Shown here: piece after piece, positions 2,593 through 33,554 of the stretch
Numbering within the stretch: the first letter of the stretch is position 1
Layout of the letters: each line of letters starts with the position of its first letter
Assembly: GCF_964204865.1 (NCBI RefSeq)
Contig: NC_135254.1
Location: 14,942,001-15,006,000 of the forward strand
Length of the DNA stretch: 64,000 nucleotides
Origin: Styela clava
Taxonomy: Eukaryota
Direction of reading: 5' to 3'
Notes under the pieces: generated by a model
What the model saw: only the letters and a program-made list of their open reading frames with translations
Database searches by the model: none
What the model was told of the DNA's origin: nothing
Program-made: the position numbers and the translations under genes

Positions 2593-3748
2593 TTTCTGTT
2601 TATTCAAATTTATCTAGTGTTGACTTCGTTTGTGATAATAAAATCTCTCTCTCTATCTACGTGTTGGTTAAATTTAAACTGCATCGTTATTTAAAAAACT
2701 GAGATATACAGTACAATATATGTAATTTTTCCACTTGTCGTAAAAGTCTACAATAGGCTCAATTGTGTACTATACCTATTGTTTTCTTTCATGGTAAAGT
2801 GATATTGAGTAAAGCTGAAAGACATTTTACGGTTGAGTTGTCACACGAACACAATACGGACGAATTTTCTTCATGTATGTGTTTCAATACAGAGAAGAAC
2901 TATACGATTTGCTTCTGACATCAGGGGGCCTTCCGTGCCCAAAATTAGAAAGTGGCGACGTTGTAAAAAATAGTGTTGCGGAGAGAAGTGGTACATTTTT
3001 GAAATTGTGAATATTTAAAAGATTGCTTCAACATAAAAGGAAAACGACAAAGTAGACATTGCCGTTCATATTTCCAAATTATTTCACTGATAGAACAGCT
3101 CGGATATCAGGCGATCACAATTATGGAAGGTTTGTATGAAATAGTGCAGTTTTTGAAAAAGTTTGCTTGTTCAATGCATTTTGTATTGGTTAACGCTCCA
3201 TAACTAAACTAAGATTTCAATGTTTCTGTGAATATCAATTTAACTCTCGTTGTCCCGGTGTGTTTAAGCTTCTGCTTTCAAACCCTTAGGCCTATTTTTA
3301 AGAGATGATGCCAGTTTTGGACTGTTAAAGGGGAAACATTCAATTACCATGGTAAAATGATATATTTGAATATATCGATTTTAAGTGAACGAATGCAAAA
3401 GATTCCACTCAACTAAGTATGTGACTAGTCCAGCATCGTCCAGCCTATCGTATTAACATGCCAGTTGTGGGTGGTATGCGTAATATTATGTGTATTTAAA
3501 CGCTAGAACGGCGATCTGAGCAAACATTCAATCTCTTATTATGCGGAGAATTGACACTACCCTAATATTTGCAAAAAACACAACGATATATGTTGTCGGT
3601 TAGTGTGCACTATGACTAAAGCATGACATTAGATGCCACTTGTAAAGAATTGTACGCAAAAACAAAATTTGTGAAAGTTTGATACAAGACTTTTGAACCA
3701 CCAAGGACAAAGCTAGTACATTCACAACACATACGTATATATAAATAT

Positions 3749-5581
3749 TGGGGCTGGGAATTTCATGGAAAACACTTTAACCGGTTAACCGCAGCGTGAC
3801 GTATTAGTTTGTTGCGTCACAATGGTTACAAAGACATTTCGCGTGATCTTATCGCGGTGTCGCTCTATATTATCCCCGAATCCAGGGGTCGGTCGCTTCG
3901 CTACCCGCGAGGGGAAATGTAAAGAAATGTGTTTAGTAAGGTAAAAAGTAGGTGTTTGTTCTGATTTTGTTGGAAGACCCTGGTCGTTGCGCCGGACGAA
4001 TGGCGGCATTCGTCCGGCGCGGTGCCCCCGACCTTTTTAGTCCATTAAATAGTTTAAATACCAGGTTAGAAACCGATCACCCTCAATGGAAATCAAGTTT
4101 TATTAATTTTAGGGCCCGTGATCACTCAACCGTGACGAATTTTTTTTGACATAAATTAGACCTCAATTAACTTGTATGACCCAGATATGGCCTCTCTACC
4201 TATTACCATTCTCGAGATATAACGTAAAATCACTGCAGCATGACTGAAGAGTTGGAGGAAAAAAATTCCTTTTAAAATGGATTCAAATAATTTTTCCAAA
4301 TATGCCCATGCTTTCACTTTCTCAATATGTCCTTTCAGAGGCCTGCAATAAGCCAAAATCACTAAAGCGTGACTGGGGAGTAAGAGAACAAAAATTTCTT
4401 CAAAAAAATGTTAAACTAATTTTTCCAACCATACCTATCTATTTCATTTCTCAATAGCTCCATTTTTAAGTGCGCAACCTTCTTACGCCACTGGAGGGCT
4501 ATTGGGAGGGGGAAACACCGATTTTTCAGTAAAGAAAATTTCAAATATTTATACTCTTTGAGAATTAGGCAAATCTTGGCCCAAAATCCCATTCACATGC
4601 CTCAGAATTGCCTAAAAACAATAGAACCTAAGTGGGCGTGGCTTTGCACGAGTTCTCTCACCACAGAGGGCGTGGGGGCACAGCCCCCACCGCCAAAAAG
4701 ACTTGGAAAAATTCCTAATACTCGGGCAAACGCTTTCCGGCCCCGGAAACTTAGCTAAACAGCCTCTAAACCCCTAAATCACTCTCGCGTGACTTGATTG
4801 ACAGCTGATTGACCAATGAACAGCCTCGGGCCACAAAAACCCCGTTTTGACCCCTTTCCTCTGGCCCGATCGTTTCCAAAAATTTTCTGCGTCATGCGGA
4901 CAGGGATACCTGACTAACGTGCTAATCACCTACCTCATCTGCCCTACCCTACATAGTGGAAATGCTCATCAGTCGGTCTCCCACGCATAGAATTTTAACT
5001 TCCACCTCACGTGCAACGTTTTCTGATTTAGACTGTGCATTCGCACTTTCAGTGCGACAGGTTGCGAGACCATAGATAGTTCCCTGGTCGCTCTACTACA
5101 GGAGATGTGCAGCGTGGTTCAGACATAAGGAAGTATTTTAGTAAAGGCCATTTCCGATATTAAATGTCACTTATGGGACAAATATTTAGTGTTGGATGGG
5201 AAAATCTACTCATCATAAATAAACACAACATCAACTGCTCACTTGTTGGATGACATTGAATAATTATACGATTTTGCAATAAAATCGTGAACAATATATT
5301 TCGACCAAAAACCGATTCTGAATTTATCATTGTCAAACTTTCATAATCAGCAATCTTGGTACTTAATTAGTTTTCACATTTATTGGGTCCTTATCAATAC
5401 AGTTAGTGATATTCTTTTGAATTAAACGCCACGTGATACAAATTTGCGATGACGTAATCATTTTTGAAGTAATTGTACATTATAAAGATGGTTAGTACCT
5501 GAGATGCCAGTTAACGGTTAAAATAAATCGTAACCGTTAACCATCTAAAATAAGTTAACCGGTTAACCATTCCCAGCCCTA
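3749..5581. mobile_element. Non-autonomous hAT-superfamily DNA transposon (~1.83 kb)
   Basis: TIRs TGGGGCTGGGAAT / ATTCCCAGCCCTA; exact 8-bp TSD ATAAATAT (3741-3748 and 5582-5589); sub-terminal TTAACCGGTTAA motifs at both ends; no transposase ORF. Confidence 0.85.
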
Positions 5582-5828
5582 ATAAATATATATATACGTA
5601 TATCACTGATCTATCATAGAGACTATAGACGAGGGAAAACAGCGTATAAAAGTTTTGCTCTTTTTTTAATCTCAAACCCGAACGACTGATATCACCAGCA
5701 ATCGGAATCATTCAGTCAGTTTTGCCAATATCTTAAAATAGATAAAAAATTTCATACGTTCTATTCGACTAATATCTTGATGAAATTAATTTATCCGTTC
5801 CAGGTGCAAATTTTTTTGTGTGTTTCAG

Positions 5829-8800
5829 ATCCAGAGAATGAAGTAATCGACGAAAAGGAGTATTCATTGGCATCTGAGCTCAGAGACCTGTGTAGTGATT
5901 TCCGAAAAGAGTCAGCCAGCAAATTAGCACAATGTGCCGACGTTCTTCTTAAGCTCGGTGAAATATATTTGAAGAAGGTTGACCACACGTCCGGAATATT
6001 ACAAAAATTAACCTATATTCGATGCAGCACGCTGTTAAACGGAGCAAAAGTTAGATTCAAACTGAAAAACATGGAAGAGGAGGCCGTTGCAACTGAAGAC
6101 CTTTTGCAAAGAATGGGAATAAAAGTTCTTCAATCTGCATGCGCTCATAAAACGAAGGATTTGGTCAAAATCTCTAATAAATTATTCAAAAGAATAAAAA
6201 AGTTTCGAATGATGTATAGCAGTAAAGTGCGACGTATCCCTCATTTACCCGAAGTTGGAGATGAATTTTTCAAAAGTATGAAAGTGTTTTATGTAAAAGA
6301 ACTATTGCAAGAGGTAACAGATGAATACAAGTCAATAATGAAAACAATTTCAGAGAAGTGTCTGATTATACTCGGTGAAAGTCCCTGTGACTTTGCCGCC
6401 GTAGGACTGGGTTCTCTTGCCCGTGGAGAAATCACTCCGTACTCGGATTTTGAACATGTTTTGGTTTTGGAAGACGGCGTAGAATGCCGTAAGGATTATA
6501 AAGACATAAAAGAATATTTTCGTTGGTATTCAGTTCTCTTTCAGTTAATAATGATAAATTTTGGAGAAACATTCATTCGGAGCGTTGGTATAAAAAGTTT
6601 GAACGATTTATATTCGAATGACCCGGAAAAGAACTGGTTTTATGACATATTCACCCCGTGTGGCATTTCCTTTGATGGCATGGCGCCACATGCTTGCGGC
6701 AATCCCTTAGGAAGGCAGTACCAAACGGAGAAATGTCGCCACATCCTTGAACTTATAAAGCCTTCGAGTGAGATGGCAAAACTCGTGAATTCAACCGAGG
6801 ATTTGAACAACGGTTACTACATCAGTGAACTTATATCAAGGCCTTGTTTTGTGAATGGCAGTCAGCTGGTTTATGACCAATTTCAGTCTTTTGTTTGGAA
6901 AGAATTGGAGGAAGTCCAAAGATATAAAGATGTTGGAAAGCTAATATCGTCCAACGTTCTTGCACAAGTGAGGAATAACCAAGACTATTTCCAGAAAGAT
7001 AAAATTTTAAACGTTAAAACAGACGTATATCGGCCAATCACCGTCATTCTTTCTTGTCATGCTCGAGTGCATAGCATACGAGATTTTTCGTCATTCCGAA
7101 TTATTGAGGATTTATTCCAAACAGGGGTTCTTTCAGCGAAGGCCTATGTGGAATACAGATTTGCTCTAACAATAGCTTGTGAAGCTCGGATGAAAGTATA
7201 TGTAAAATATGCAAATCAGAGACATAAAATAGCGATGAAAACTTTACTTGAAATCATTGGTAAACCGAGCTTTATTGAATTTTATGAGAACATGCTCTTG
7301 ATTCGACATGATTATCATTTATGTTCTGAGCTGAACCTATCTAAACTAGGAGCTTCCCTTATAAACTCTTACCGTTCCGAGGGCTTTGAATATTTTGGCG
7401 AAAAATTTGAGATGGCAGAGGCGAGAGGTTTGGCGAATGCCGGCTTGTACTTCGAAGCAATACAGATCTGTCCCGTGATTCCTATGGAAGAATGGAAAAT
7501 GTATGCACTATTTTGCGAAGTCTGTGCCGAAGTTTGTAAAGACGCTCTAGCTGACGAGGCGATGCTAAAAATCTGCATTGAAAGCGCCGGAAGAATAAAT
7601 CTAGGTGACTCTTCGATACCTCTCGAAGTAAGGACCATCGTTTGTCGTTTTAGAGGCTTAGCAGAGGGATTACTTGGATTGCGCTCTAATTTGAACAGTA
7701 CAATAAGGCGATTCGCTCGTGTTTTCGTCCCAATGACATTAGGAGGAGCAAAACATTTTCTTAGCCTTTTGATGTACATGAACAATTTTTTTGGTGTGAA
7801 ATTTGACAGCGAATCAACATTGTTTAGTGACCTCCATGACTTGATCCAAACATGGGAAGTTTCCAACAATAAAGCGGAAGAAATATGCAAGACAGTAACA
7901 TTGGCAAAACTAATGCGAGTTTTTGACAAGCCCTCTGAGGCCATTAAGCTAGCTGTTTCAGCAAGGAGGAAATTAAGAGATTATGCTAGCAATTTTTCTG
8001 AAGAATTCGTAATGGGACAGTTACATGTTCTGATATGGATCATTGACAGGCTTCGGCGAGATGCTGCGACCGCCAAAGAGCTGACAAACTTAGTCGACAT
8101 TACCGAGATTGCCGATATGTGGACTGCTCTTGGTCACATGTCCGAGAACGAAAACAAACGAGTTGAAATAATCCCGTGTAACAAGATATGGTGCCTCAAT
8201 GAGCTCGGTCGAAACGAGGAAGCATTGGCAAAGTGCGACGAATACTTAGCCGATGAAAATTTAGGTAAAGATGCAAAAGTTGGACTTTTGAATCTAAAAG
8301 GTAATACGTACATACTATTAAGCGACAAGGAACAACGAAACAAACGTTACGACAATGCCTCAAAACAAATAGAACGGGCAATTCGACTATACAAAAACAT
8401 GGACCACGAAGAAATGAATGAAAATTGTCAAATTGGATATGCGTTGGCGGCATCCAAATTCTTCGATGTCTCCCTTGGTGAGGGCTTGGAAACTCTCGCA
8501 AACGCGCGAGCTATTTTGGAGAATCTGCCTGACCAAACTAGGTTATCATTTTTCAAAACATACCATGCTGAGTATAAAGTGAAGTGGCAAGATCTGTATA
8601 AGCAAGAAACGAACGAAAATTGCATTACATTATTACATTGTATTTTGGGTTTATGGCGCTTTACTATTGCTAGAAATATAGTAGTGATCGGTAAAATGAC
8701 TAAAGGCGATGAGATATTGGATAGCCATGTAATGATTGAACGATATTCAAATCAATTGCGACTCTTAGAAAAGCATGGAGATCCTAAAATGAAAAATGTG

Positions 8801-9148
8801 GCAACTGTGTTTTTAAATTTTTTATTAATGAGCGCCGCGTCTGGAATGGACGAAGTTTATCTTGGGTTTGCTTGGATCAGACAAAAACCTGACGTTTTGC
8901 GCGAATTTCGACAAGTTAGGAATGATATTGAACGCAAGGTTTGGGTAGATTTGTTCGATAAATCAAAACAAAATCTTTCACTTTTTCGTAGGTTATTTCT
9001 GTTGGCAATTCTACGAGCAAGTGTTGACCAAAACAAGGACGACTTGGCCAGCGTAAAGATTAATCATATACCAATCTCAATTTCTTATCCATTCCTTGTT
9101 TCAAAAGATGGAAAGTGCATGAATGATAATGATAAAATATTATCTTGA
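5829..9148 (+). CDS. DUF294/GlnE-like nucleotidyltransferase + DUF294_C-like helical domain + TPR-like repeats (single large exon; true start probably on an upstream exon)
   Basis: 1123-aa ORF (5777-9148) with Pol-beta-type motif GLGSLARGEITPYSDFE (~6404-6454); segment NVKTDVYRPI...ARVHSIRDFSSFRIIEDLFQTGVLS...EARMK resembles DUF294_C; TPR-like segments LNELGRNEEAL and LLNLKGNTY. The ORF opens at TTG, and a strong acceptor TTTTTGTGTGTTTCAG ends at 5828. Confidence 0.8.
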
Positions 9149-11896
9149 TTTATATCTGACTGTTTTACAAAATGCCTTGTGAAAATTAATCGAATGTTTT
9201 TGCTTAATAGAATTAAACTGCTGCGTGGGTTTTATTCTGGAAAGACGTTTTATTCGGGTTTAGCTCCACCAAAAAGATTGCAAACCACTTGTCTAATGCA
9301 ACTATATGCACTTGAGAAACTGGATGCAAGATGCTTGTGGTGAAACTTAAATTGTGTTTTGGGATTTAGTTAGTGCGCATAGGATCATATTCCATGTGTG
9401 GGTCTAAAGAAGTGTACATCGGAGCTGCTATAAATAACGCCAAACAAAAATGTGATGTATAAATACTGCCGAAATTTTTTTTTTGTCATATAAAAGTCAC
9501 GTGCGGAACGCTATGGGTATCCTGTTTGCCATGGGACATACCTGCTTGATGATTACGTGAGTTTTATTTTAGCTATACGTGTCTGTCAAGAATTTCCTTC
9601 TACGCCAGACAGATGTTTTTTAAATCATAAAAATCTCACATCACATTTCTATTTGGAATTTTAAAGGTGGATTATCACGGAAATTTTTTTTCGATGAATT
9701 TGATTCTATATATTTTTAGGAAATGGTGACGCTTACAATTTACATAAAGTCGACTAAGTTTTCTATCTAAGAATTTTTAAAACCCATCCAACGAAAATCG
9801 ACCGATATTGATATTAAAGATATTGCCCGTATTGGTATGTATTTGAACCACTGTAGCGTTTGCCAAATATGCACGGCGCAACAACGGTTTAAAATAAGTA
9901 AACAGAACGCAAAAACCGCCTTTGACCTGAAGCAAAATTACGCCGCCGAGTTCTCACGTACTATGTCATCATCGAGACATACTAATTTGCCTTCGATTTC
10001 GGCAGGGTTGACTTTTAAATATTTGAGTCTCGCAAACGAAGTCCACTTTATGCAAGCGGTGAACGCCAAAAATCCTAAAAAATTATATAGAATCAAATTT
10101 GCCAAGCCTTTTTTCACAAGTGTATTATAACAAGCGGAATATAAAAGCGCGTAATATATGTCTAATATTCTGTATCCTATAAGCCAGTACTTTCGAAATA
10201 ATTATTGGCGTTTTTAGAGTTGTACTTACGAATCCATTTAATTTTGAAGGATCATAATTGTTTACAATCCAACTAGCATGCTCTATTTTTAATTGTTCTC
10301 ACCGTGTCATTTGCCACAAACAACTTCGATATTTTGCAAATTGTCTCTTGTTTTTTTGTCGATTGAAACTGCGCCAGGCAAAATAATTGTCTGGAATGTT
10401 GCTATTGGCAATATGGCAACCTTAATTAAGAGTTATGCTATTTCTTTATCTTTCTTAATCTTTAATGCAATACAAAAACAAAGAGGCATTGTAAACTGAG
10501 CAAGAAGAAATTTTAGAAAATCAAATTAAAAGCATATTTGTACGAACTGTGTTGGAAAAATCATATATATATATATATACAGACGTTTTTTCTCGAATAA
10601 ATACCGTTTAATCTCCGGGCTCGCACTTTTTAAATGTAAGATATACGCCTTCGGATATTGGCATCTTTTCCGATAGGTGTTCACAAACTTCATAAAAAAT
10701 GCATAAACCCTTAAAACAAATGTTTACGTCCTTAATGAGGCGCATTTTTCACATTGACTTTATTCTCTCTTGTATGGTCTATCGCTACGGGTTGTTGTCA
10801 AGTTAAAAGCATTGCAACAACTTAGCAATGCCAGGTGAAATATAAACTCAAGGTATTCGTTGTGGGCCGCAGGGCATGTACAGAAGGAAAATTAGTCGTA
10901 AAACATTTTTATGCGGTTGATGGAATGGCATATCACCTTTATTCATCGTCGACACCAAAGTGGAGAATAAAGGTAAGTTATTTTTTAGTGTGTGAAGGGG
11001 TAGGGGGAGTCCCTATCTTGTGCATTTAATAAACAAATAGTATTCATTTCTCCTTACATATGGCGCTAAATCTATATATATATATATATATATAGCTTTA
11101 TGTTAGAATCTCTGATTTGTAAAATAAGCGACAACAACTATACAGCTAAGAAAATATGCATTATCAAAACGTAAAAAACAAGCGAGAAGTAAGAATTGTA
11201 TCATATAAAAGCATAAAGAATTCAGATGAACTAAAAAAAAATCAGTTTTTGACCACACGTATGGTGGGATTTCTTTTTAAGCGCCTTGCTTGTACTTTGG
11301 CAATATACATAGACTTGACCCTCAGAAAATCTGTAGCTTCAGCATTTATTTATGAGCAACTAAAAGATATAAAAAAAAATCAACAACCGGTTATATTTCT
11401 GAATATTTTTTTCATCTGATACAACGGTATATTCTTTGGTGAAGTACCACAGGCGGTACCAAATGTTTTACGATACCTTCAATTGCACAAAAATGCGAAT
11501 ATTTATTTTAAAATACTGGTGTCTTTTAATTAAGATAAAGATCAGAGTTAAATAGCAGAATTTCAAGTTGAAGGTAATGCGAGACAACATTTTCATATGA
11601 CAAAACTGTATCTTTTGCGGTGATACACCACAAAAGATACAACCTGTTCTTAGAATACCGCGGATACCACATAATAATGAGGCATCATTTAAATACTAAA
11701 GAGATAAGTTCAAAATATATAGATTCAAACGAAGCAATGAGTTCGTCATCAAGCTGTCCCGAGTTTTGCGAAAATCAGAATGACTGCGTAACTGCACAAT
11801 TTTGTGACGAACATTATCCTGAATTTCTATACAATCAGCATTTTCATGTCTGTCAGTTCGAGGCTTTTGTTTTACTTGGACGGTCGGCATTATTAG

Positions 11897-13583: not shown

Positions 13584-14377
13584 GTAACTTAGCCTCATAT
13601 GAAAACGTTTTATGAAATGTACGATTGAAGTATGTGCAAAACTGCACCAAAGTATTTTTTGATCAATTTATGCAAAAAATGTGACCAATAAAACACATAA
13701 TGCAGAGAAAAATTTTTAGGATCTCAGTTTAGCATTTTTTTGTTTAATTTATTTTTGGATAATACGATATTGATTAACACACGTTTGAATCCTTTGGCAT
13801 TTTGCCGTGCTTCATGATAAACTATATTAATATTCAAATCTGATGTGCTACAACTGATATTGGGTTTTTCTTCGATTGTTGGTTTTAAATTTCCAAAGAA
13901 AGAGTGAGTACCAGAGTGGCGTTAAAAAAAGCAAATATCAAATCATACATTTTCGACCAGGAATTTCTAGTTATTAAATCGACAATGATCGATTTAACTA
14001 CTTATGATAATAGCGTAATAGATACATACTTAAAAAGAGAATTGATGCGATCAAGTTAATAAAAGTATTAGAGAGGGAGTTCAAATAACGTGATGATTAT
14101 GAATAGCTACAGAAGAGGATGTTATAATTAATTTTTAAAATAAGGTTATAATTATTATGAAACCTAACATTGAAACACTTTATGTACTAGACATCGAGTC
14201 AATTTTCGCTATGCTATACGAATTTTCGTTCTGCATTATTGTTCGTTGTGTTGGATCCATGTATAGAATTATTATATATATACGATGTACTTCGGATAGC
14301 CATTGATAAAAATAAAAAAGATTAAACAAGCGTCCGATCATAACTATGAACTGGTTTTGTATTTGTAGGTCCACAGA

Positions 14378-16122
14378 ATGACGAAGCATTTCCGACCACG
14401 GCACAATTCATGGAAGACGAGACATATCGTTGCCCTGTCTTTGGTAGGTTTTGTTTGGTACACTCTGGTTTCCAAATGGTCTCCCACAGAAGATAAATCT
14501 TCTTTGATCAGAAAACTTCAGGGATTGAAGCCAGTATTTTCACAAAAATCTTCGAAAAGCACCATGATGACGAGTACAACCACGGCAACTAAAACCACCT
14601 TGAGAGCAATACAGAAACCGTCCGTACTTGAAAAACAGAAATCTGATAAATCACCCAAACTTGTGCCTCCCAAACAAAAGTCCAGAAATAAAGACGAAGA
14701 TGCCGATCCGTTCAACAGAAAAAAATTGAACATGAATAATGACCCAAAATTGGCTGAGCTTATTCCAGTTGAGGCACCTGGTAGAAGAACTAGACCGAAA
14801 TTGGGAGGTTTCTTAACACCTCCTCCTATGACGAAAAAGCCTCCTATAATTCTAGTGTGGAAAGCTATGGAACACCAGATGAAACATTATAAGGAAGATT
14901 TGGAATTTTATTTTGGAGAGGAATGTGGGGGTTGTCAGTTGACAACAAATAGAGCGCTGGCGAAAGAATGTGCAGCCCTGGTTCATTTCAATTCTCCAGA
15001 TTTACGAAAACTTATGGATGTACCGGATAACAGTACCAGGTAAAAATTTTCTATACGTATGTCGTATATATACGAATATGTATATGTATGTCTAGTAAAC
15101 CATGATAACGCAGCTTTGCTTTTGTCATCGTTCTCTTACTTTTATCGCCAACAAGTTACAAAAACCACTCAACTTATTTCTTTTTACATGTCAGACATCA
15201 TTTGTAAGGGAAATGCAACTAACCGCCGATTGCTGCGGCAGCTCGGTTGGTCAATACTCACTTATCATCTTTTCTTTTATTTGTTATTTTTAGAAATCCG
15301 GACCAATTTTACGTTTTTTGGTCTCGTGAGACCCCGGCAAAAACTTATTCCTTCAGAAATGTACTTCAAGACAAACGTTTTGATCCAATCTTCAACCTTA
15401 CAATCAATTTTCGGCGGGATGCAGATATTGTTGATTACTTCGGTAATCGAGAATACGAACTTCGATTCTATCGGGAAAAAGAGAGAGACACTGACAACAA
15501 ATGGTTTGAGAGATTATTGAAAAAGAAAAACGGCCTTGCAGTATGGGCAGTCAGTAATTGCAACAGCACTTATGGAGCTACGGAAAGAATGAAATACGCG
15601 AAATCACTGATGAAGGCAGGTCTAAAGCTAACGGCATTTGGACAATGCTTCGGTAAAAGACCCACTGGTGGCGAAATGTTACAGCAGCTGATGCGACATA
15701 AGTTTTACATGTCCCTAGAAAATTCGATTCATTGCCCTGATTATGTTTCGGAAAAGTTCTGGAGAAATGGTCTACGCGCTGGTGCTGTGCCAGTAGTATG
15801 GGGTCCATCTCGAGAAGATATTGCAGAAATTGCCCCAAAACATTCTTATATTCACAGCGAAGACTTTGAAACCCCAGAGAAGCTGGTGAAATATTTAAAT
15901 TATTTAGATAAAAATCAAACAGCTTATTTGGAGTATCATGCTTGGCGTTTTAAACCAATAGACGATTCGATACCTGAAGAAGACATCATACCAACATACA
16001 GATCGTCGTTGTGTCGACTGTGTAAAAAAATTAATGAGAGGCCAATTGTTCGCAAAACGATTGCTTCTGTTTATGACTGGTTATATGAAACACGATATCC
16101 AGACGATTTGTGTTTTCGATGA
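14378..16122 (+). CDS. Alpha-(1,3/1,4)-fucosyltransferase (GT10), paralogue 1; exons 14378-15039 and 15294-16122 (496 aa from this ATG)
   Basis: Type II TM (IVALSLVGFVWYTLV), S/T/P/K-rich stem, GT10 motif FYMSLENSIHCPDYVSEKFWRN, C-terminal CRLC. A phase-2 GT-AG intron restores the frame. Confidence 0.92.
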
Positions 16123-19435: not shown

Positions 19436-21056
19436 TATGTTACATGTAACACCATGCAATAAGTCAAGTAAATATTCGCATTCCCACGCGAATAAAAATT
19501 CATGAATAGTTTGTGTTCAACCAACATAACATCACCAACCTTGCATAATTTGGGATAGGATAACACGAGGCAACCTTATTGATTGATTTTAATCGTGATT
19601 TTGCGAGATTTCCTTGCATACGCATAATCAATAAGAACAAAGTCTGGTAACGCAGAATGAAACGTGTAAAGCTGATCGTTGGGAATAAGCCCGCAATCAG
19701 CGGTAATAGCAGACTGTACACGTATAGATGACGTTTAGCGCTCGCGGACATTTTTATTTTTCTAATCCTCTCGCCTTAACCTGGATCAATTTCGACACAA
19801 TAACGTTAATTTAGCTTTATTAGTAAGCGGGGATAACATGTGCTAGTCTAGGTCAGTCTGAGTTAATCTCAAGGTGAAAGTTAAACTGGAATTCAGCCAG
19901 ACTTGAAAGAGAAAATATTCACCAGTAAGCGTCTATGAGGGTACGTACCAAAACATTATTATTCTGATATGTATATGGAATTAGTTTTTTTTGATAAGAT
20001 ACGAAATATTTATGTACTCTAAGCCCTATAGGGTCGAAAATGCTAATTAGATGATAGTCTTCAACGAAATTAGAATATGAAATCTGATTAAATAAAAAAC
20101 ATGACTGAAATATGAAAAATACATAGCGCTGCACTGATTTTCAGAATTATATATACATAAACATAATCAGATGACAGCTTTCTAACAGAACTTATATTTA
20201 AAGATCGTAACTATTCAATTTGGTTTATAAACTGGACACCCATTCTGGTAATACGACAAGACCTCAATTCTGATTCTTGGAATGATGTACGTTTGTATCA
20301 TGATGTTTAGATGTTAAAATGATATGATCAATATGAGTTTGAAAATATTTTTGATGTATTTCGACTGGCATTAATTCACGAAAAACCCCAAAAATGGATT
20401 TTTTTTCCTATGTGAAGAATACCAAATTTTCGAAAATCCCAAATGCTGAGGACATCATTTATCTTTTTAAAACATCCGTTTAGGTCGATATTTTTCGAAC
20501 TTCCACGCAGCCATAGGGTTTAATTTTTGCCACAATTCAAAATGATCTAGTTTAAATCGCTTCGGGCAGTGTTTTCATTTTAGCGTTCATATACACGCTC
20601 TGTAGGAAGGTTGAATCGTTGTATTGAAGAGTTTTTGAGGATAATGTTACTCGAATAAGCATGTAGATATCATGTTAATGCCCTTGAGAATCAGAAATAA
20701 ACATTTGCTAAATATCTTTAACTATCAACACTCAACTCAAAACTAAAGTTTGTCATCTATGACTTCGAAGGAGCGTGAACAATTGTTCTAATAATGACAG
20801 CACGCAATGATATTGAAAAAATGATAGAATACTTTGCATTTTTAGCTCTTCGCATTAAGCTTCTTGGTTTTTGTACGTTTTGTTGTAATTTTTTCTCTTG
20901 TTCGAATCATTTTTAACTTTGTAACCATTGTAAATGCATGTATGCCCGCATTATCGGGTACTGTTGAATGAAAGCGAGTCCAACTACTAAAAAATAGAGT
21001 TATTCTCTATAAAAAAAGACTAGTAATCGATTCCAATTTTCATGCAGGTCTTCAGG

Positions 21057-22578
21057 ATGGCCAAGGCGCGAACGAGCAAGTGGAGGATGAAACATTTGAC
21101 AACGCTATTTATCATCTGTTTTGTTTGGTACGCAATTATTACAAGGAGAAAATTTTCCGACGATAAAGAAAGCCTGTTACGATTATTTTATCGCTTAGGA
21201 CATTTTGGAAAGGAAGCAAGTACAACAAATCCGCCATCTCCATTTTCTGTTAGACAGCTATCACTTTCAAAAGCGGAAAAGGAACGAAAAGTCGCTCATG
21301 ACCGTTTTCAAAAAAACGTAAACAAAAAAGAGAAACACGATAGTCCCAAAAAAATTATTCAAAACGATATTGATGTCACAATAAACACGAAACCACCTAT
21401 AATACTTGTTTGGAAAGCAATGGAGTACCAAATGAAAAACTATAAAACGTTTTTGGAATATTATGCACCAGAAAATTGTGGAGGTTGCCAGGTGACAACA
21501 AATAGATCATTGGTAAAAGAATGTGCTGCTTTGGTTCATTTCAACTCACCCGATCTCAGGAAATTTCTTGATGTTCCAGATCCAAAGTATAGGTGAGGTT
21601 TAAGTTTTAGAACATTTCTAATTAAGTCCTACAAACATATTTATTCATAATTGAGCTGATATTGATCTATTACTTTGATCAAGTGAAACCAAACTGGTTT
21701 GTATGTTTAGTAAAACACATTTATTTTCATATAAAAATTCGCTTCTATATTGCAGAAATCCAGATCAAATTTATGCATTTTGGTCTCGCGAAACTCCAGC
21801 GAAGACTCAACATTTCAAGAATGAATTAAAGAGCGATACATTTGATAAAATTTTCAATCTAACTATCAATTTTCGTCATGATTCAGATATAGTTGATTAT
21901 TTTGGAAACATAGAATACGAACTCAGAATATTTAAACAAAGGAACAAACGCAACATGGCAATTGACAAAATCTACAAGCAAAAGAACGCTCTTGCAATAT
22001 GGATAGTAAGCAACTGCGACAGTACCTATGGAGCCGCAGAACGAATGAAATATGCTAAATCGTTAATCAAGGCTGGTCTCAGTTTAACAACTTATGGCGA
22101 TTGTTTCAATAATCGCTTCTCTGGACCTGATATGAACAAAGAAATAATGCGTCATAAATTTTACATGTCTCTCGAAAACTCTATACATTGTCCAGATTAT
22201 GTTTCAGAAAAGTTTTGGAGAAATGGATTACGAGCAGGTGCAGTTCCCGTAGTTTGGGGACCGACGCGAGAAGACGTTGCTCGTATTGCTCCAAAACATT
22301 CATATATTCACAGCGAAGATTTTAAAACTCCAGAAGATTTAGTAAAGTACTTGAATTATTTGGATAAAAATGACACAGCTTACAGGGAATATCATGCATG
22401 GCGTTTTGAACCAATAGATGAGTCCATTCCAGAAGAAGACATTGTACCTAATCATTATTCAACATTTTGTAGACTTTGTAAAAAAGTTACTAAAAAACCA
22501 CTAGTTCATCAAACAATTCCTTCGGTAACAAAGTGGCTTTATGAAACTGGATATGTTGATGATAAATGCTTCAAATAA
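21057..22578 (+). CDS. Alpha-(1,3/1,4)-fucosyltransferase (GT10), paralogue 2; exons 21057-21592 and 21756-22578 (452 aa from this ATG)
   Basis: TM LTTLFIICFVWYAII, GT10 motif FYMSLENSIHCPDYVSEK, same phase-2 intron position as paralogue 1; acceptor at 21047 upstream of the ATG. Confidence 0.92.
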
Positions 22579-24084: not shown

Positions 24085-26790
24085 TCCCGCGGAAACAAAT
24101 CCCCGGCCTTAAACACAATGGTATAACAGCAATCGAAGATTCCGAAAAAGCTGAGCTTCTGGCGAGTTCGTTCTCGGCAGGTCAGTAGCAATGAAAACTA
24201 CTCCCCGAAATTTCTTTAAAGAAAGATCGCATTCAAATCCTCACATGACGTAACAATCTTCAAGGCTAATCACAAATTGGATAAAAATATCACAATGAAA
24301 GAACTCAATCAAGTTTTAAAACCAAGAAAAAGCACTGCTCCAGGAATAGACAAGATTTGCTACGCGATGCTTATAAAATTGCCCGCATAATGTAAAGACA
24401 TATTACTCAAGATGTTCAATTTGATTTTGAACAAAGGGAGTATTCCAGATACCTGGAAACGCTCTGTTGTAATTCCGATTCTTAAATCCAATAAACAAAA
24501 AGACCAACCATCTTCATATAGGCCTATATCTTTAACTAGCAGTTTATGTAAGGTCTTGGAAAGAATTATAGTTCGCAGACTGAATTGGTTTGTTGAAAAA
24601 AAATGGCATATTATGTAGAGAACAGAGCGGTTTTAGGTGGAGGAGATCTACAACTGATGCATATCTAAAATTTCACGATGACATATATAAAGCTTTACCA
24701 AATAAAAGATCTGTACTTGGCATTTTCTTAGACATGGAAAAAGCTTATAGCATGGTATGGAAAGTGGGACTGTTATACAAACTATATAACATTGGTGTCA
24801 CCGGGAAAATTTGGCTTTTCGTTGCATCTTTTCTGACGGATCGTTCATTTCAGGTTAGAGTAGGCAGTCGTCTTTCAAGTATATTCTCATTAGAAAACGG
24901 AATTCCTCAAGGGAGCGTAATCAGTCCACTGCTATTCAATATAATGATAAACGATATGCCTAGTACTATTTCATCAGATAATGTTGGATTGTTTGCAGAC
25001 GATAGCGCTCTATGGCACATTGGGCTCAAAATTGTAGATTTAATCATTTCCTCTCAGAACTGGTTGGATTGCATTCAGTCCTGGTGCAATCAATGGGGTT
25101 TTAAGATCTCGGTCACAAAACCGATAGTTGTACTCTTCACCCGAAAGAGAAAATTACTACCAATAGAACTACACATAAACGGTGTAATACTACCAGTCAG
25201 GAATGAAGTAAGATACCTCGGAGTCTATTTCGATAGGCGCTTAAATTATAAGAGACATATCGAATATGTTGTACAAAAATGTAGTAAACGGATTAATCTG
25301 CTGCGTTTGCTTATTGGCTAGCTGGGGAGCTAACAAATCACCCCTTTTGTCATTGTACAGATCCCTAGTTCGACCCATTATGGAATATGGTATGGAAGTC
25401 TATTTTTCAGCATCAATGAATGCCACAAGAAAAATCGAAATTATCCAATCTCAATGTCTACGCATCGCTGCAGGTGGCATGATGAGTACGCCTAAAATTG
25501 CTTTACAAGTTTGTTGTAATGAGATGCCATTTAGTGTACGACGACTACAATTATGCCTCTTATATAAGGCTAAACTGCTAACATTTGTTGACCATCCTTG
25601 CCACGAAGTCATCGAACACTCAGGGAAATGAAATATTTCCCAACTCTCCAACATTTCGTACATTTGGTATGATTGCAAGGACTTTCGATATTGACAAATT
25701 GGATATTAGTATTATTAAAGCCGAAGAAATTTCCCCATGGTATTTGATGAAATTAATATTGACGATGCATTATCGAATATACTTTTTCCTTGGTATACGC
25801 CCGACCAAACAAAAGCTATAAGTTTGGAATATATAAATGAATCCTATCAATCACACGTGCATATCTATACCGATGGATCAAAAATTGATGACAAATGCGG
25901 TGCTGCGGTTTATGTTCCATATAATAATTCTCGCATGGGTTTTAGGCTAGACAAAGACTGTTCCTCGTTTGATTGCGAAGTTTTTGCAATATATAGTGCC
26001 CTTACATGGTCAAAAAATAACTATAAAGGGAATATACTTATCATATCGGATTGTATGTCTGCTATACACGCTATAAATAATAACTCGGATCAAATTAGTA
26101 ATATATCTTCAAATATTCAGACTTGTCTTTTTGAGTTACAGGAACAAGGATGCAAAATAACACTACTATGGGCTCCAGGACATGTTGGCATTCCGGGTAA
26201 CGAAGTCGCCGACAAAATAGCAAAGGTATCAGCGGCGAAAGTCGATGTGGACAAAAGATTATCCCAATCACAAAACAAAGTCAAATCACAAATTCGACAA
26301 TTTTGCGCTAATAAATGGGATCAACAGTTTATACACAGTGACCAAGCGTTTCATTACAAGACATTTTCCCCTCAAATGAAGACAGCATCAAGAATTCCAC
26401 TTGGTCACCACGAATAATGGACAAAATTTTATTTCGACTTCAGACGGGACATTGCCGTTTAATTGGGCACCTCCATAAAATAGGATGCCATAATAATGGA
26501 CTTTGCGATTTCTGTGATTCACCAGAGACAGTAGAACATTTTCTAATGAACTGTCGTGCATATAGAAATAAAAGACGCATACTAAAGATGAAATGCCGCG
26601 ATTATGGCATTGAATTTCAACTCAAAGCTATCTTACGCGACCCTAGCATTGCCCCTGCTCTTGTTGATTTTGTGAAATCTACCAAGAGAGTACTATAGCC
26701 ATATACAAAATTTTGATTTAAATTGTCTGGCGCAAAAGACTCAAAAAAAAAAAAAAAAGCGCCATATATTACCATACCACACACACACGT
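24085..26790 (+). mobile_element. 5'-truncated, decayed non-LTR retrotransposon (I-group/Nimb-like LINE: RT + RNase H + CCHC)
   Basis: YRPISLTS, QSGFR, FLDMEKAY, GIPQGSVISPLLF, FADD and YLGV RT motifs; RNase H YTDGSK...SDC...WAPGHVGIPGNEVAD; CDFCDSPETVEHFLMNC. Broken by stops (~24388, 25319, 26415) and frameshifts (~24600, 25630, 25750). Confidence 0.92.
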
Positions 26791-30771: not shown

Positions 30772-33554
30772 ATTCCACGTTTGAAAAGCCATTTCAGAGC
30801 TAGATCTCGTGGATGGAAGACACGGAATATTATATCACTATTTCTATCCGGAATTATATGTTATGCATTAAGCAAACGACTGAAATTAAGCATTAGAAAT
30901 CATGGTGATTTTCCATCAATAAATTTAAAAAGGAATGAAATTGGAAGAACCAGAGTCTATCAAGAAAAACATGATTTATCAGACAATATGAACGCCATTG
31001 AAAACTATGTAATTCGACCTCCGAAAATTATCGTTGAGGACAAAAAAGATGGTATAATTGAAGAAATAAAAACAGAAAAGTTCAAAACGATTAAAAATAT
31101 TGACATGAAGCAAAAGAGCGCGAAGGAAAAAGTTGAGAACTTTTCTTCGTTAGAAGACACGCGACCGCCTATTATTTTAGTGTGGAAAGCCATGGAATAT
31201 CAAATGAGAAATTACAAGAAACATCTGGAATATTTTTCTCCAAACGAATGTGGAGGATGCCAGGTGACGACAAATAGATCACTTGTTAGAGAATGTTCAG
31301 CCTTGGTTCATTTCAATGCACCGGATTTACAAAAATATATGGATGTACCTGATCCAAAAACCAGGTAAGTTTAATTTTGTGATAAATAAATATTGGGGAC
31401 ATAGGGCATACATATAGAATGAATGTACAACCGGCTACTGATTGTCGTGCGTATAAAAGTATAAAAGTTGTCGTTTAAAACAATCAAATTTGAATTCGTA
31501 TGTTCGGGTCATGCTGATATATATAGTTTATATGGGATCCAACCTACTCGAGGGAAAAAGGTTATGTGTATGTAGTATATATGACCACAGAAAGCGCTTA
31601 AAAAAATGACACTTTTGCGCTCAAATGTGAGTTAGACTCAAGAGCGTAGCCAGCCCAAACATTTTTTGTATAATGAAGTGATACGATGATCACTCGTGCC
31701 TTTTGCTCCCAACAAAGTCAGATAAAAGTTGCCACTGATATCTAACAACATCTTATAGAATCGCTCTACACACGTACTTCGCTGTCGAAGTTATTCAATG
31801 CGTATAAGCGCGCATTTTCGTCTATTTCGTTTGGTTCATTTGGTGAAAGGATTATTGATAGCAAGTCAAGAAACGTCCGGTTTTCAGTAAATCGTTCGAG
31901 AATAGAGAAAAATGCTGTCGAAAAGGGCGTATGAATTTATGTCTCACCGCAAATGCCGTAAAATTGCATTTGATAAAAAAAAATGTTGAGTTTTTTTATT
32001 TTTTGGAGAGGGAGGGGGCATGGCCTCTCAATCCCGGCGGCTATCAATCTTCATTACAGGAGGTCCCGATACAAATAACTTAGTGAAACCGCGGGCCGCA
32101 CCTTCATTTAGCTTCCGTATCTCATTACCTTTACTCTCCTTAAATTGCTCGCTGCTCAGCAAGCGACAGCTTTGTGAATCGCGTTGCTCGCTTCGCACAA
32201 ACTAGCTGTTAGGACATTGTAACGTCGTAGGCATAGATAATACATTGAACGCAAAGAAATTGGAATTGCTCGCACGAAGCAGATTTAACTGAAATAAAAA
32301 CACGTCTCGTGGGGCGCATTTCGCCCGCAGGCCTCAGGTCTAAGCAACCAAACTTTTTCGAATGATGACAGAGCGCACCTAGGACACAGTGCCCTTCGAT
32401 AATAATGCCCTGAGCGCCCGCTTGAAAGCCATCCATCTTTAGTACGAGAACATACGTTATATACATTATTATTTCATATTGTTTTTCCAAAGATCAAACA
32501 CCTCACCCCACTATAATAATATATTTAATGTTGAATTAATATAAATATAATCCAAACCGTTGTTGTACACAAATTTTCGACTTAGGTGAATTTAAAAAGA
32601 AATGTCTCTTGACATGTATAGCAGATACGTACGGGGCTAAATATTTTTTTAAAATCCCGAGATGTATTTAAAAAAGCCCTTTTAAAATCTATTTTATTAT
32701 TTAACTAATAAATAAGTTTTCTCTTTTTCAGAAATCCCGACCAGATCTACGCGTTCTGGTCTCGTGAGACTCCATCAAAAACATACAAGTTCAGAAAGAC
32801 GTTACAAGATCCCCGATTTGATCCCATATTTAATCTGACAATGAATTTTCGTGTAGATGCTGATATCATAGATTATTTTGGAAATATTGAGTACGAGCTA
32901 AGATTTTTTCAAACTAAGAATCGGGACGGGATTTGGTTGAAGAAGATAATGAAGCGAAAGAACGGTCTTGCTATTTGGGCTGTCAGCAATTGCAACAGTA
33001 CATATGGCGCTACAGAAAGAATGAAATACGCAAAATCATTAATTGAAGCCGGACTGAATCTAACAACATATGGGGATTGTTTTAATAACAGATATCAATC
33101 GAGAACTATGACCCAAGAAATAATGCGGCATAGATTTTATCTATCTTTCGAAAACTCAGTTCACTGCCCTGATTATGTTTCGGAAAAATTCTGGAGAAAC
33201 GGCTTCCGAGGGGGAGCAGTTCCCATAGTTTGGGGACCCCGACGCGAGGACGTTGCTAAACAAGCCCCTCCGCATTCGTATATTCATACTGAAGACTTTG
33301 AAACACCAGAAAAGCTAGTCAAATATTTGAATTATTTGAATACCAATGATACAGCATATAAAGAATATCACTCTTGGAGATTTCGACCAGTTGACAATAC
33401 AATTTCTGAATATGATATTGAACCAAATCACAAATCAACACTGTGCAGACTTTGTAAGAAAATATTCGAAAAACCACGAATTCACAAAACGATTCCATCC
33501 GTTTATAAGTGGTTGTATGAAACACGATATTCAGATGATCTTTGTTTCAAATAA
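30772..33554 (+). CDS. Alpha-(1,3/1,4)-fucosyltransferase (GT10), paralogue 3; exons 30772-31364 and 32732-33554, start codon on an upstream exon
   Basis: TM IISLFLSGIICYAL, PPIILVWKAMEYQM, GT10 motif FYLSFENSVHCPDYVSEK, conserved phase-2 intron. No ATG before the TM; phase-0 acceptor at 30771. Confidence 0.9.

Follow-up and report, generated by a model that had tools for sequence, protein, structure and literature searches.

A window of 64,000 nucleotides from Styela clava, the whole stretch of DNA analysed here, contains a long open frame whose product resembles nucleotidyltransferases (NTases) that are treated as bacterial (GlnE/DUF294; PMC3710099). We asked whether this frame belongs to a real animal gene, and what its product might do. 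The frame, at 5690-9148, runs for 1152 codons, compared with a longest of 175 in 200 shuffles of positions 5001-10000, and none of the 48 listed variants introduces a stop. Its product is LOC120344594 of S. clava, with 100% identity across aa 100-520; the RefSeq protein has 1108 aa and the N-terminus MED. Residues are numbered here from the proline at 5831 (residue 1; RefSeq number = residue + 3).

Spliced contigs starting at 2832-2907 were joined on to 5829, and the 3129-5829 joint was present in contigs of 4/4 runs, from four studies; the run type behind the contigs is presumed, and they carry neither expression level nor tissue information. In three of four additional runs exon 1 ended loose at 3129, and the remaining run showed unspliced intron read-through. 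A single contig covered exon 1 and 5827-9073. Contamination was ruled out by the spliceosomal intron, the animal-gene neighbours on a 24.9-Mb contig and paralogues across eight contigs. Positions 5829-9148 are thus the long second exon of an intact, spliced animal gene. The sequence-only reading, which had begun its feature at 5829 and assigned it to an invertebrate chordate-like genome, was right on both points, as 5829 is a true splice acceptor. Neither a signal peptide nor a strongly hydrophobic stretch was present in the window protein, whose hydropathy peaked at 1.43. Feature coordinates are collected in Table 1.

Table 1. Features of the gene and its product, in window coordinates.
Feature	Position	Strand	Basis or remark
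Exon 1 (5' UTR and ATG GAA G; start codon 3123)	~2900..3129	+	5' end approximate
Phase-1 intron, 2699 nt, GT..AG	3130..5828	+	3129-5829 joint in spliced contigs
Exon 2 (remaining CDS through TGA; no second intron)	5829..9148	+	open frame; contig cover
N-terminal helical region, aa 1-~134	5831..6230	+	pLDDT 84-98
Pol-beta nucleotidyltransferase core, DUF294/SidM_N-like	6248..6920	+	Pfam, fold model, structure and profile matches
Catalytic motif G194-S-x10-D206-x-E208 (G-X11-D/E-X-D/E), GSLARGEITPYSDFE	6410..6454	+	spacing equal to DrrA
Family-specific insert NFGETF...NWFYD with E246	6554..6650	+	gap in both profile alignments
D282, putative third metal-binding acid	6674..6676	+	alignment with SidM-type D
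Helical C-lobe, DUF294_C/inactive-HEPN-like, with NVKxxxYRP and R453	6923..7375	+	Pfam, model, VIA
Divergent tail, all-helical; probable degenerate TPR solenoid	7388..9145	+	weak TPR signals, low-confidence model

The enzyme half is contained in one exon and was modelled as a single folded unit. Pfam matched DUF294 at aa 155-230 (23.4 bits, above the cut-off of 21) and, under their cut-offs, SidM_N at aa 160-254 (E 1e-4) and DUF294_C at aa 389-462 (E 0.012). Model confidence for the N-terminal half was high (pLDDT 89), with strands at 188-192 and 209-213 flanking the G194...D206-F-E208 motif. Together with the third acid, D282, this agrees with the signature of a G-X11-D/E-X-D/E motif carried by a three-stranded sheet. 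At E<=0.001 Foldseek returned GlnE and DrrA only (4 of 500 rows), GlnE 1v4a first. A VIA search of 48,161 chains gave DrrA/SidM 6yx5_B (Z 26.3, rmsd 3.4, 323 residues), E. coli GlnE 1v4a (Z 25.6, rmsd 3.5, 320 residues) and E. coli GlnE 3k7d (Z 24.1, rmsd 3.5, 310 residues). These superpositions, at Z 24-26, covered both the NTase lobe and the helical lobe, and HHalign matched the clade at 97-99%. From aa 65 onward the model superposed on the N-terminal helices of DrrA (VIA alignment, model 65-513), and aa 2-113 resembled TPR-like hairpins (VIA matches to model 2-113, Z 8-12). Searches of PDB sequences gave only TPR proteins among the matches listed. HHalign against single GlnE domains gave no match, and GlnE was not found in any of five genomes searched for a fairer comparison. 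By the predicted model, DrrA/SidM and GlnE are tied as the closest structures. The Pol-beta fold of the GlnE/DUF294 clade and the DUF294_C/GlnE-like helical segment, both proposed from the sequence, were thereby recovered.

Other NTases among the VIA matches listed, aminoglycoside NTases included, reached Z 8.5 at most. Nucleotidylation of a small molecule or RNA, as in aminoglycoside-NTase-like detoxification or RNA tailing, with the tail as a scaffold, would draw on the two-lobe layout that aminoglycoside NTases have in common with the window protein (~230 residues, Z 7-8.5). Their rmsd, however, was 6-7, whereas the enzymes that modify proteins had 3.4-3.5, and the TPR arrays and F-box fusions of homologues suggest protein partners, so we consider this quite unlikely.

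The catalytic motif has the same spacing as G98...D110-x-D112 of DrrA (PMC7815794). Ten of its 15 residues were identical in one SidM_N-family protein, and its G-S-L start is common to DrrA; by sequence, the nearest motifs are those of SidM-type proteins. The third acid had been placed in GISFDG (6662-6679), and alignment agreed: D282 fell on the SidM-type D, which in one protein lies 38 residues past the second acid, the spacing from D112 to D150 in DrrA. E246 was also considered because it lies 40 residues past D206, as D150 does past D110 in DrrA, and was dropped, since it sits inside an insert missing from SidM-type and canonical DUF294 proteins; E246 was found in 427/429 homologous cores. 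D206 was kept in 425 of these 429 cores, D/E208 in all, D282 in 427, and D206, E208 and D282 jointly in 424, across animals and bacteria, a census that is biased because its members were picked by similarity to the window domain and include near-duplicates. These counts support conservation of the catalytic acids. In the C-lobe R401 was kept in 427/429 and R453 in 422/429 cores, and NVKxxxYRP (within NVKTDVYRPI, 7010-7039) aligned with the SidM-type 'iKxDxlRP'. The HHalign match to SidM-type proteins spanned the whole domain (probability 98.7% global, 97.3% local); that to canonical CBS-DUF294 proteins reached 93.1-97.4% in six three-sequence draws and 98.1% with all 12. Judged by profile, the family is no nearer to SidM-type than to canonical CBS-DUF294 proteins, for which no published activity assay was found.

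The window protein is a member of the GlnE/GlnD/DUF294/DrrA clade and is distinct from GlnE, GlnD and DrrA themselves; no characterised family was found for it, as the sequence-only reading had supposed. With DrrA/SidM of Legionella pneumophila (SidM_N, PF20879), whose AMPylation substrates are Rab GTPases, modified at a switch-II tyrosine, it shares the fold of the whole domain, N-terminal helices past the GlnE match, the G-S-L start, the G-X11-D-x-D/E spacing, the aligned third acid, the C-lobe K/RP motif and, probably, a setting in the eukaryotic cytosol. It differs in being encoded by an animal host gene with an intron, in its 15% identity, in having E for the second D and an insert of ~32 residues with E246, and in its TPR-like tail, which stands where DrrA has GEF and PI4P-binding (P4M) domains; for these Pfam gave no match at E<=1 (full protein) or E<=0.1 (tail). 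E. coli GlnE is alike in fold (Z 24-26) and in having three acids in its active site, but it has two NTase domains (removase and transferase) and a central regulatory domain where the window protein has one NTase domain and a TPR-like tail; identity is 11-13%, there is no sign of a PII/GS circuit, and no GlnE family of Pfam or NCBIfam matched. GlnD has HD and ACT domains after its NTase, neither of which matched in the window protein, and the GlnD family score was 14.4 bits against an NCBIfam cut-off of 799. Canonical bacterial proteins with DUF294 and DUF294_C (~620 aa) share a DUF294 match above cut-off (profile 98%, 249 columns), yet 12/12 have D-Q-D where the window protein has D-F-E and 12/12 lack an acid at the D282 position; the window protein in turn lacks CBS/cNMP sensor domains (no CBS match).

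On the evidence of predicted structure and sequence, we propose that the window protein acts in the cytosol as a protein NMP-transferase, probably an AMPylase, and that its tail selects the target or trigger (probability roughly 0.6). The three top structural matches all modify protein hydroxyls (PMC8097203). By analogy with DrrA/GlnE chemistry, D206, E208 and D282 would hold Mg2+, the GS loop and basic residues of the C-lobe would bind the triphosphate, and the attack on the alpha-phosphate would come from a Tyr, Ser or Thr, with pyrophosphate leaving; an NMP, most likely AMP from ATP, would thus end up on a side-chain hydroxyl of a protein in the cytosol. The fast-diverging tail would decide the target protein or the timing of activation.

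The Pol-beta fold is also used for RNA, antibiotic and messenger chemistry, and fold likeness alone does not prove function. The sequence-only reading had allowed for either a protein-nucleotidylating or a messenger-making enzyme. In the latter case, a signalling-nucleotide synthase of the cGAS/OAS kind, the tail would sense infection and the core would make a cyclic or linear oligonucleotide; cGAS/OAS/CD-NTase synthases make cyclic or 2'-5' oligonucleotides. The sensor-repeat and NTase layout and the lineage-specific expansion in sessile marine animals do resemble immune families, the oligonucleotide-making Hailong HalB aligned weakly (Z 6.5-7.1), one PADLOC candidate model weakly matched the motif (E 6e-4), and an oyster cGAS-TPR fusion has been mentioned (PMC8195603). 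Against this, the entire two-lobed domain including the C-lobe fits protein NMP-transferases at Z 24-26, far over other NTases listed, and a messenger synthase would be less useful to bacteria that fuse the domain with F-box adaptors aimed at host proteins. cGAS, OAS and Mab-21 were absent among the Foldseek and VIA matches listed, and Pfam gave none of them at E<=1; such an absence is no proof against a Mab-21/OAS-type fold. Since DrrA and both GlnE domains, the three strong matches by structure, are protein NMP-transferases, nucleotidylation of a protein is favoured over synthesis of a messenger, and we regard the messenger alternative as unlikely.

The reverse activity also seems improbable; here the enzyme would strip AMP off host proteins, such as ones AMPylated by bacterial effectors, and the tail would recognise the modified substrate. 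In its favour, 1v4a, the AMP-removing domain of GlnE, ties with DrrA (VIA Z 25.6 vs 26.3) and came first in Foldseek, and a host counter-enzyme would be expected to expand and diversify too. In GlnE, N169 is removase-specific and G697 transferase-specific (PMC4454073); the window protein has T202 at this position, like three SidM-type proteins. The family HMM, moreover, scored 15.3 bits on the GlnE transferase domain and -1.3 on the removase domain, and the same residues are kept in bacterial effector-like homologues.

Evidence on the tail pointed to TPRs at low significance. Weak Pfam matches were to TPR/ARM families and below cut-off (TPR_2, E 0.94), one TPR protein matched at E 0.003 in the PDB sequence search, and Atlas scores of 0.86-0.88 were taken as leads only. 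The tail model was all-helical and unreliable (pLDDT 46); no match in its fold search reached E<=0.001, the best from Foldseek with this low-confidence model being to TPR proteins at E 0.002. Homologues carry clear TPR arrays at the tail position. The tail is probably a degenerate TPR solenoid: the proposed ~600 aa of TPR-like sequence stands as regards helical content and the arrays of homologues, but not as regards a significant TPR match or a confident model. A TPR and AMPylase layout is known in animals from FICD/HYPE, which, in contrast, has the unrelated Fic fold and is a single-copy, ER-membrane protein.

The locus had been presented as a single candidate gene; it is a real gene, but one of a large family, with ~19 intact paralogues in S. 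clava including itself. In the enzyme half the window protein was 38-44% identical to 17 intact paralogues, whereas its tail could not be aligned with any of the 18 paralogues compared, none of which matched it at E<0.001. By sequence comparison, paralogue tails have diverged far more than the enzyme half. In close paralogues dN/dS was 0.26-0.36 for the enzyme part (7/7 pairs) and 0.34-0.68 for the tail, above the enzyme part yet below 1. As tail dN/dS was <1 and 14/28 tail variants were synonymous, positive selection on a sensor is unsupported; none was found in either paralogue dN/dS or the listed variants.

One paralogue with a degenerate motif retains a 1437-codon open frame with TPRs, an exception among Styela cores. 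It would suit an alternative in which the animal copies no longer catalyse and instead bind nucleotides as scaffolds, or as decoys for effectors of bacteria, which is very unlikely given that the window protein and 22/23 Styela cores keep D206, and 22/23 keep D282.

The family is expanded in tunicates, Branchiostoma, octocorals and a few intracellular bacteria. No relative was found in viral contigs (0/94 candidate stretches) or phages. Neochlamydia homologues were detected by tblastn (E 7e-21; 11 places, one plasmid); a plasmid protein of strain S13 matched the enzyme half over 97% of its length at 27% identity (E 7e-21). The plasmid homologues have an F-box-DUF294-TPR layout, with an F-box in both proteins inspected. 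This is the layout of the Neochlamydia NEX2 family (F-box-[OTU]-DUF294-TPR), sequence homologues with the same acids and the enzyme followed by TPRs, of which one member carried a functional type III signal (Domman et al. 2014, PMC4209131). Because of this shared layout and signal, intracellular bacteria appear, by analogy, to deploy a homologous enzyme within eukaryotic cells. The NEX2 expansion is under purifying selection (dN/dS 0.29; same source), comparable with 0.26-0.36 in Styela. Most NEX2 members carry an N-terminal F-box, whereas the window protein has neither F-box (no Pfam match) nor OTU, is animal, spliced and not bacterially secreted, and has a degenerate tail. The architecture is already present in NEX2-type effectors of intracellular bacteria; no published description of the animal family was found, although supplementary tables of NTase classification papers may list it, and the available NEX2 text describes neither an animal homologue nor an NTase assay.

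Two octocoral rows were placed among bacteria in trees. Several separate transfers to animals are unsupported because the AU test does not reject a single animal clade (p 0.72; p 0.68). The rooted tree nested animals among bacterial rows with support of just 80-90, and bacterial monophyly was not rejected (AU p 0.50), so a bacteria-to-animal direction is likewise unsupported. A tentative and rather doubtful extension is that marine invertebrates domesticated an AMPylase of intracellular bacteria into their innate-immune repertoire, with a DrrA-type head and hypervariable TPR sensors AMPylating a host or microbial protein upon a microbial or damage cue. More speculative parts of the NMP-transferase proposal itself are that targets or triggers might differ from paralogue to paralogue and that the family could be active in host-microbe conflict.

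Metazoan AMPylases are given as Fic proteins and SelO only in the available text of two reviews (PMC8097203; PMC13459536, 2026), and DrrA-like proteins are treated as confined to Legionella (PMC4454073). From model and sequence, the window protein likely represents a type of protein-tagging enzyme not yet listed for animals in reviews. If active, it would add a third fold for animal protein AMPylation, in the nearest invertebrate relatives of vertebrates, and would give the DUF294 domain of NEX2-type effectors a testable activity. Were domestication also true, the family would be a third animal AMPylase class, in which an effector was converted to a receptor-enzyme.

LOC120344594 is a live host gene, as judged from its frame, a spliced joint, its start and its variants. 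The open frame at 5690-9148 spans 1152 codons, against a longest frame of at most 175 in 200 rounds of shuffled DNA, and its product is identical (100%) to LOC120344594 of Styela clava across the searched region. All 4 runs of a first set, drawn from 4 studies, yielded contigs that join exon 1 to exon 2 at 3129/5829, with a 2699-nt GT..AG intron removed; these runs carry no RNA record, but a junction this exact is what splicing of a transcript would leave. Exon 1 was a loose end at the splice point in 3 further runs, and the intron was read through in another, larger run (the fourth of the second set). Exon 1 contributes ATG GAA G and with it the MED with which the database protein begins. Two variant listings, one of them covering 40 of its 108 rows, gave 48 distinct coding variants, 24 of them silent and none a stop.

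A 5-nt insertion allele at 9134, present in 5 of 8 runs, gives a longer protein with an altered C-terminal end, matching a 1121-aa database version. Very high-copy repeats lie just upstream of exon 1, at 1500-1800 and 2100-2700 (summed contig depth in thousands, 4 of 4 runs). Other features of the window are collected in the table.

Exon 2 of LOC120344594 and other features of the window
Feature	Position	Strand
LOC120344594, exon 2	5829-9148	+
GT10 fucosyltransferase genes, at least 3 in tandem, each with an N-terminal and a catalytic exon	14369-16122, 21027-22578, 30772-33554	+
Non-LTR-type retroelement, reverse transcriptase and RNase H frames in separate pieces, between fucosyltransferase copies	24584-26417	+
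Leucine-rich-repeat exon	37064-37576	-

The sequence-only reading had proposed a GlnE/DUF294-type nucleotidyltransferase (NTase), and such a fold was predicted for the region. Pfam placed DUF294 above its cut-off, with SidM_N and DUF294_C below. With residue numbering that starts at 5831, an AlphaFold2 model of residues 1-530 (104 sequences) reached pLDDT 89 and pTM 0.90, and its only Foldseek matches at E<=0.001 were GlnE, the E. coli adenylyltransferase, and DrrA (SidM), the Legionella AMPylating effector. In a VIA-align search of 48,161 chains, DrrA 6yx5_B came top (Z 26.3, rmsd 3.4, 323 aligned, model 65-513), tied with GlnE 1v4a (Z 25.6, rmsd 3.5, 320 aligned) and followed by GlnE 3k7d (Z 24.1, rmsd 3.5, 310 aligned). 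Aminoglycoside NTases reached Z 8.5 at most, and an enzyme acting on small molecules or RNA appears quite improbable.

The catalytic motif G194-S-x10-D206-x-E208 has the spacing of DrrA G98...D110-x-D112 (PMC7815794). The family profile aligned with 3 bacterial SidM_N-family proteins over the whole domain (probability 98.7%, global). In this alignment E246 sits in a family-specific insert and D282 meets the third acid, which in one of these proteins lies 38 residues past the second acid, like DrrA D150. Of 455 distinct cores, the census covered the 429 that fill 230 or more of 331 columns, a set biased by the gathering method; D206 was kept in 425, D or E at 208 in 429, D282 in 427 and all three jointly in 424, in keeping with the likely third acid of the sequence-only reading. 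With the acids so retained, a catalytically silent scaffold seems very improbable. Canonical DUF294 proteins matched the family profile with probabilities of 93-98%, about equal to the SidM type, so that a closer relation to DrrA in particular is not favoured, although their motif is D-Q-D and the third acid is missing from them. By predicted fold and active site, the family would work like DrrA and GlnE, yet belongs to neither.

DrrA and the two GlnE domains use three acids and Mg2+ to attach NMP to protein hydroxyls or to remove it (PMC8097203). Since all three close structures act on protein hydroxyls, protein nucleotidylation by the enzyme half is the most likely function; it would be cytosolic because no signal or membrane segment was predicted. 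AMP would be favoured as the transferred nucleotide, given the likeness to DrrA and GlnE. The same chemistry covers an eraser that removes AMP, which we consider unlikely, and a messenger synthase, also raised from the sequence, is an equally doubtful reading of a fold whose close structures modify proteins.

Homologue searches returned 479, 476 and 512 matches, of which 120 were listed from each. Those listed included Styela, Clavelina, Branchiostoma and four octocoral genera or entries (Paramuricea, Xenia, Dendronephthya and close relatives), together with Holosporaceae 'Namur' and Parachlamydiaceae MAGs among bacteria; no vertebrate was among them. Additional homologues without a species label placed inside the tunicate clade. 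Some lancelet and Clavelina members are auto-labelled PII-uridylyltransferase N-terminal-domain proteins in UniRef. One Branchiostoma protein (P0135) has several enzyme units per chain, as do other members, and another protein (P0139) also carries CUB/LDLa/tectonin domains, which may stem from a fused gene model.

The bacterial range was patchy, with local expansion: family members occurred in 6 of 86 genomes of one order and in 4 of 151 of another, and three of these genomes had 12-21 matches. A search of 72,556 plasmids gave one Neochlamydia plasmid with 11 family places; the two of its proteins scanned showed the F-box-DUF294-TPR layout of NEX2, a family of 50 members; in a heterologous type III secretion assay, one NEX2 protein tested positive (PMC4209131). 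Bacterial fusions join the same enzyme to a predicted AAA-ATPase or methyltransferase (L027:3575-7285, a genomic stretch, and the protein P0176). Full SidM_N-family domains occurred in 3 of 86 genomes of one gammaproteobacterial order (stretches L110, L111 and L112; E 3e-46 to 4e-25); a 2015 survey limited DrrA-like proteins to L. pneumophila (PMC4454073).

Trees were built on thinned subsets of 128 rows, 53 rows (a quick tree), 29 named rows, and 37 or 36 with outgroups; the last three used named rows only, and both the degenerate copy and one or two long-branched rows were omitted from them. Tunicates formed a clade (support 100) with LOC120344594 as the deepest Styela branch, and grouped with Branchiostoma and one octocoral row (support 95-98). 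Two other octocoral rows fell among bacteria. In AU tests, monophyly of the animals (p 0.72, 0.68) and of the bacteria (p 0.50) both stood unrejected. The patchy range, the mostly intronless genes and the otherwise bacterial clade (PMC3710099) make it reasonable to infer gene exchange, in one direction or the other, of animals with intracellular bacteria.

LOC120344594 is a real, expressed member of an animal family that apparently lacks an earlier description. No paper on animal members was found in the literature searched, which mostly excluded subscription journals, and the family may be listed in supplementary tables. In the paper on the S. clava genome, only cold-shock genes are reported as transferred, and 'tetratricopeptide' and 'nucleotidyl' are absent from the main text.

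In the S. clava genome, 32 candidates yielded 25 family matches (a lower bound), spread over 8 contigs. Of these, 19, LOC120344594 among them, are intact frames 741-1211 codons long, 1 is a degenerate copy and 5 are fragments. Of 9 paralogues with an annotation, 7 have their start codon inside the long frame. The degenerate-motif paralogue (L108:1880-6190, minus strand; contig G000:C2 near 21.80 Mb) reads open over 1437 codons and shows clear TPRs, and is a candidate pseudo-enzyme or decoy. Five paralogues stand in tandem on contig G000:C10 at 7.58-7.64 Mb (L092-L096); four of them share 81-96% identity across the enzyme half and 73-87% across the tail, and dS that is uneven between regions may reflect gene conversion.

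The enzyme half of LOC120344594 was 38-44% identical to 17 paralogues and 26% to the degenerate one. Its tail found no match among them by phmmer and 0 of 18 by BLAST (E<0.001), and scored 2.5 bits against a profile built from the tails of 16 paralogues, on which shuffled sequences attained up to 5.6. Across all 171 paralogue pairs, tails matched (E<0.001) in 60, mostly at 19-30% identity. In 7 close pairs, dN/dS was 0.26-0.36 for the enzyme half and 0.34-0.68 for the tail, consistent with a tail that evolves faster yet remains under purifying selection.

The TPR-like tail of the sequence-only reading stood in part. Residues 520-1105 were predicted all-helical, but at low confidence (pLDDT 46) and with weak TPR signals of their own. 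We regard the tail as a probable degenerate TPR solenoid mainly because TPR arrays are unambiguous at this position in Clavelina, Branchiostoma, octocoral and bacterial homologues. DrrA is switched on when a partner binds its N-terminal helices, on the far side from the active site (PMC7815794); the model overlays that helical region, and control by such a route is possible. Since the head is conserved while the repeat tail diverges, the tail may pick the target or gate activity.
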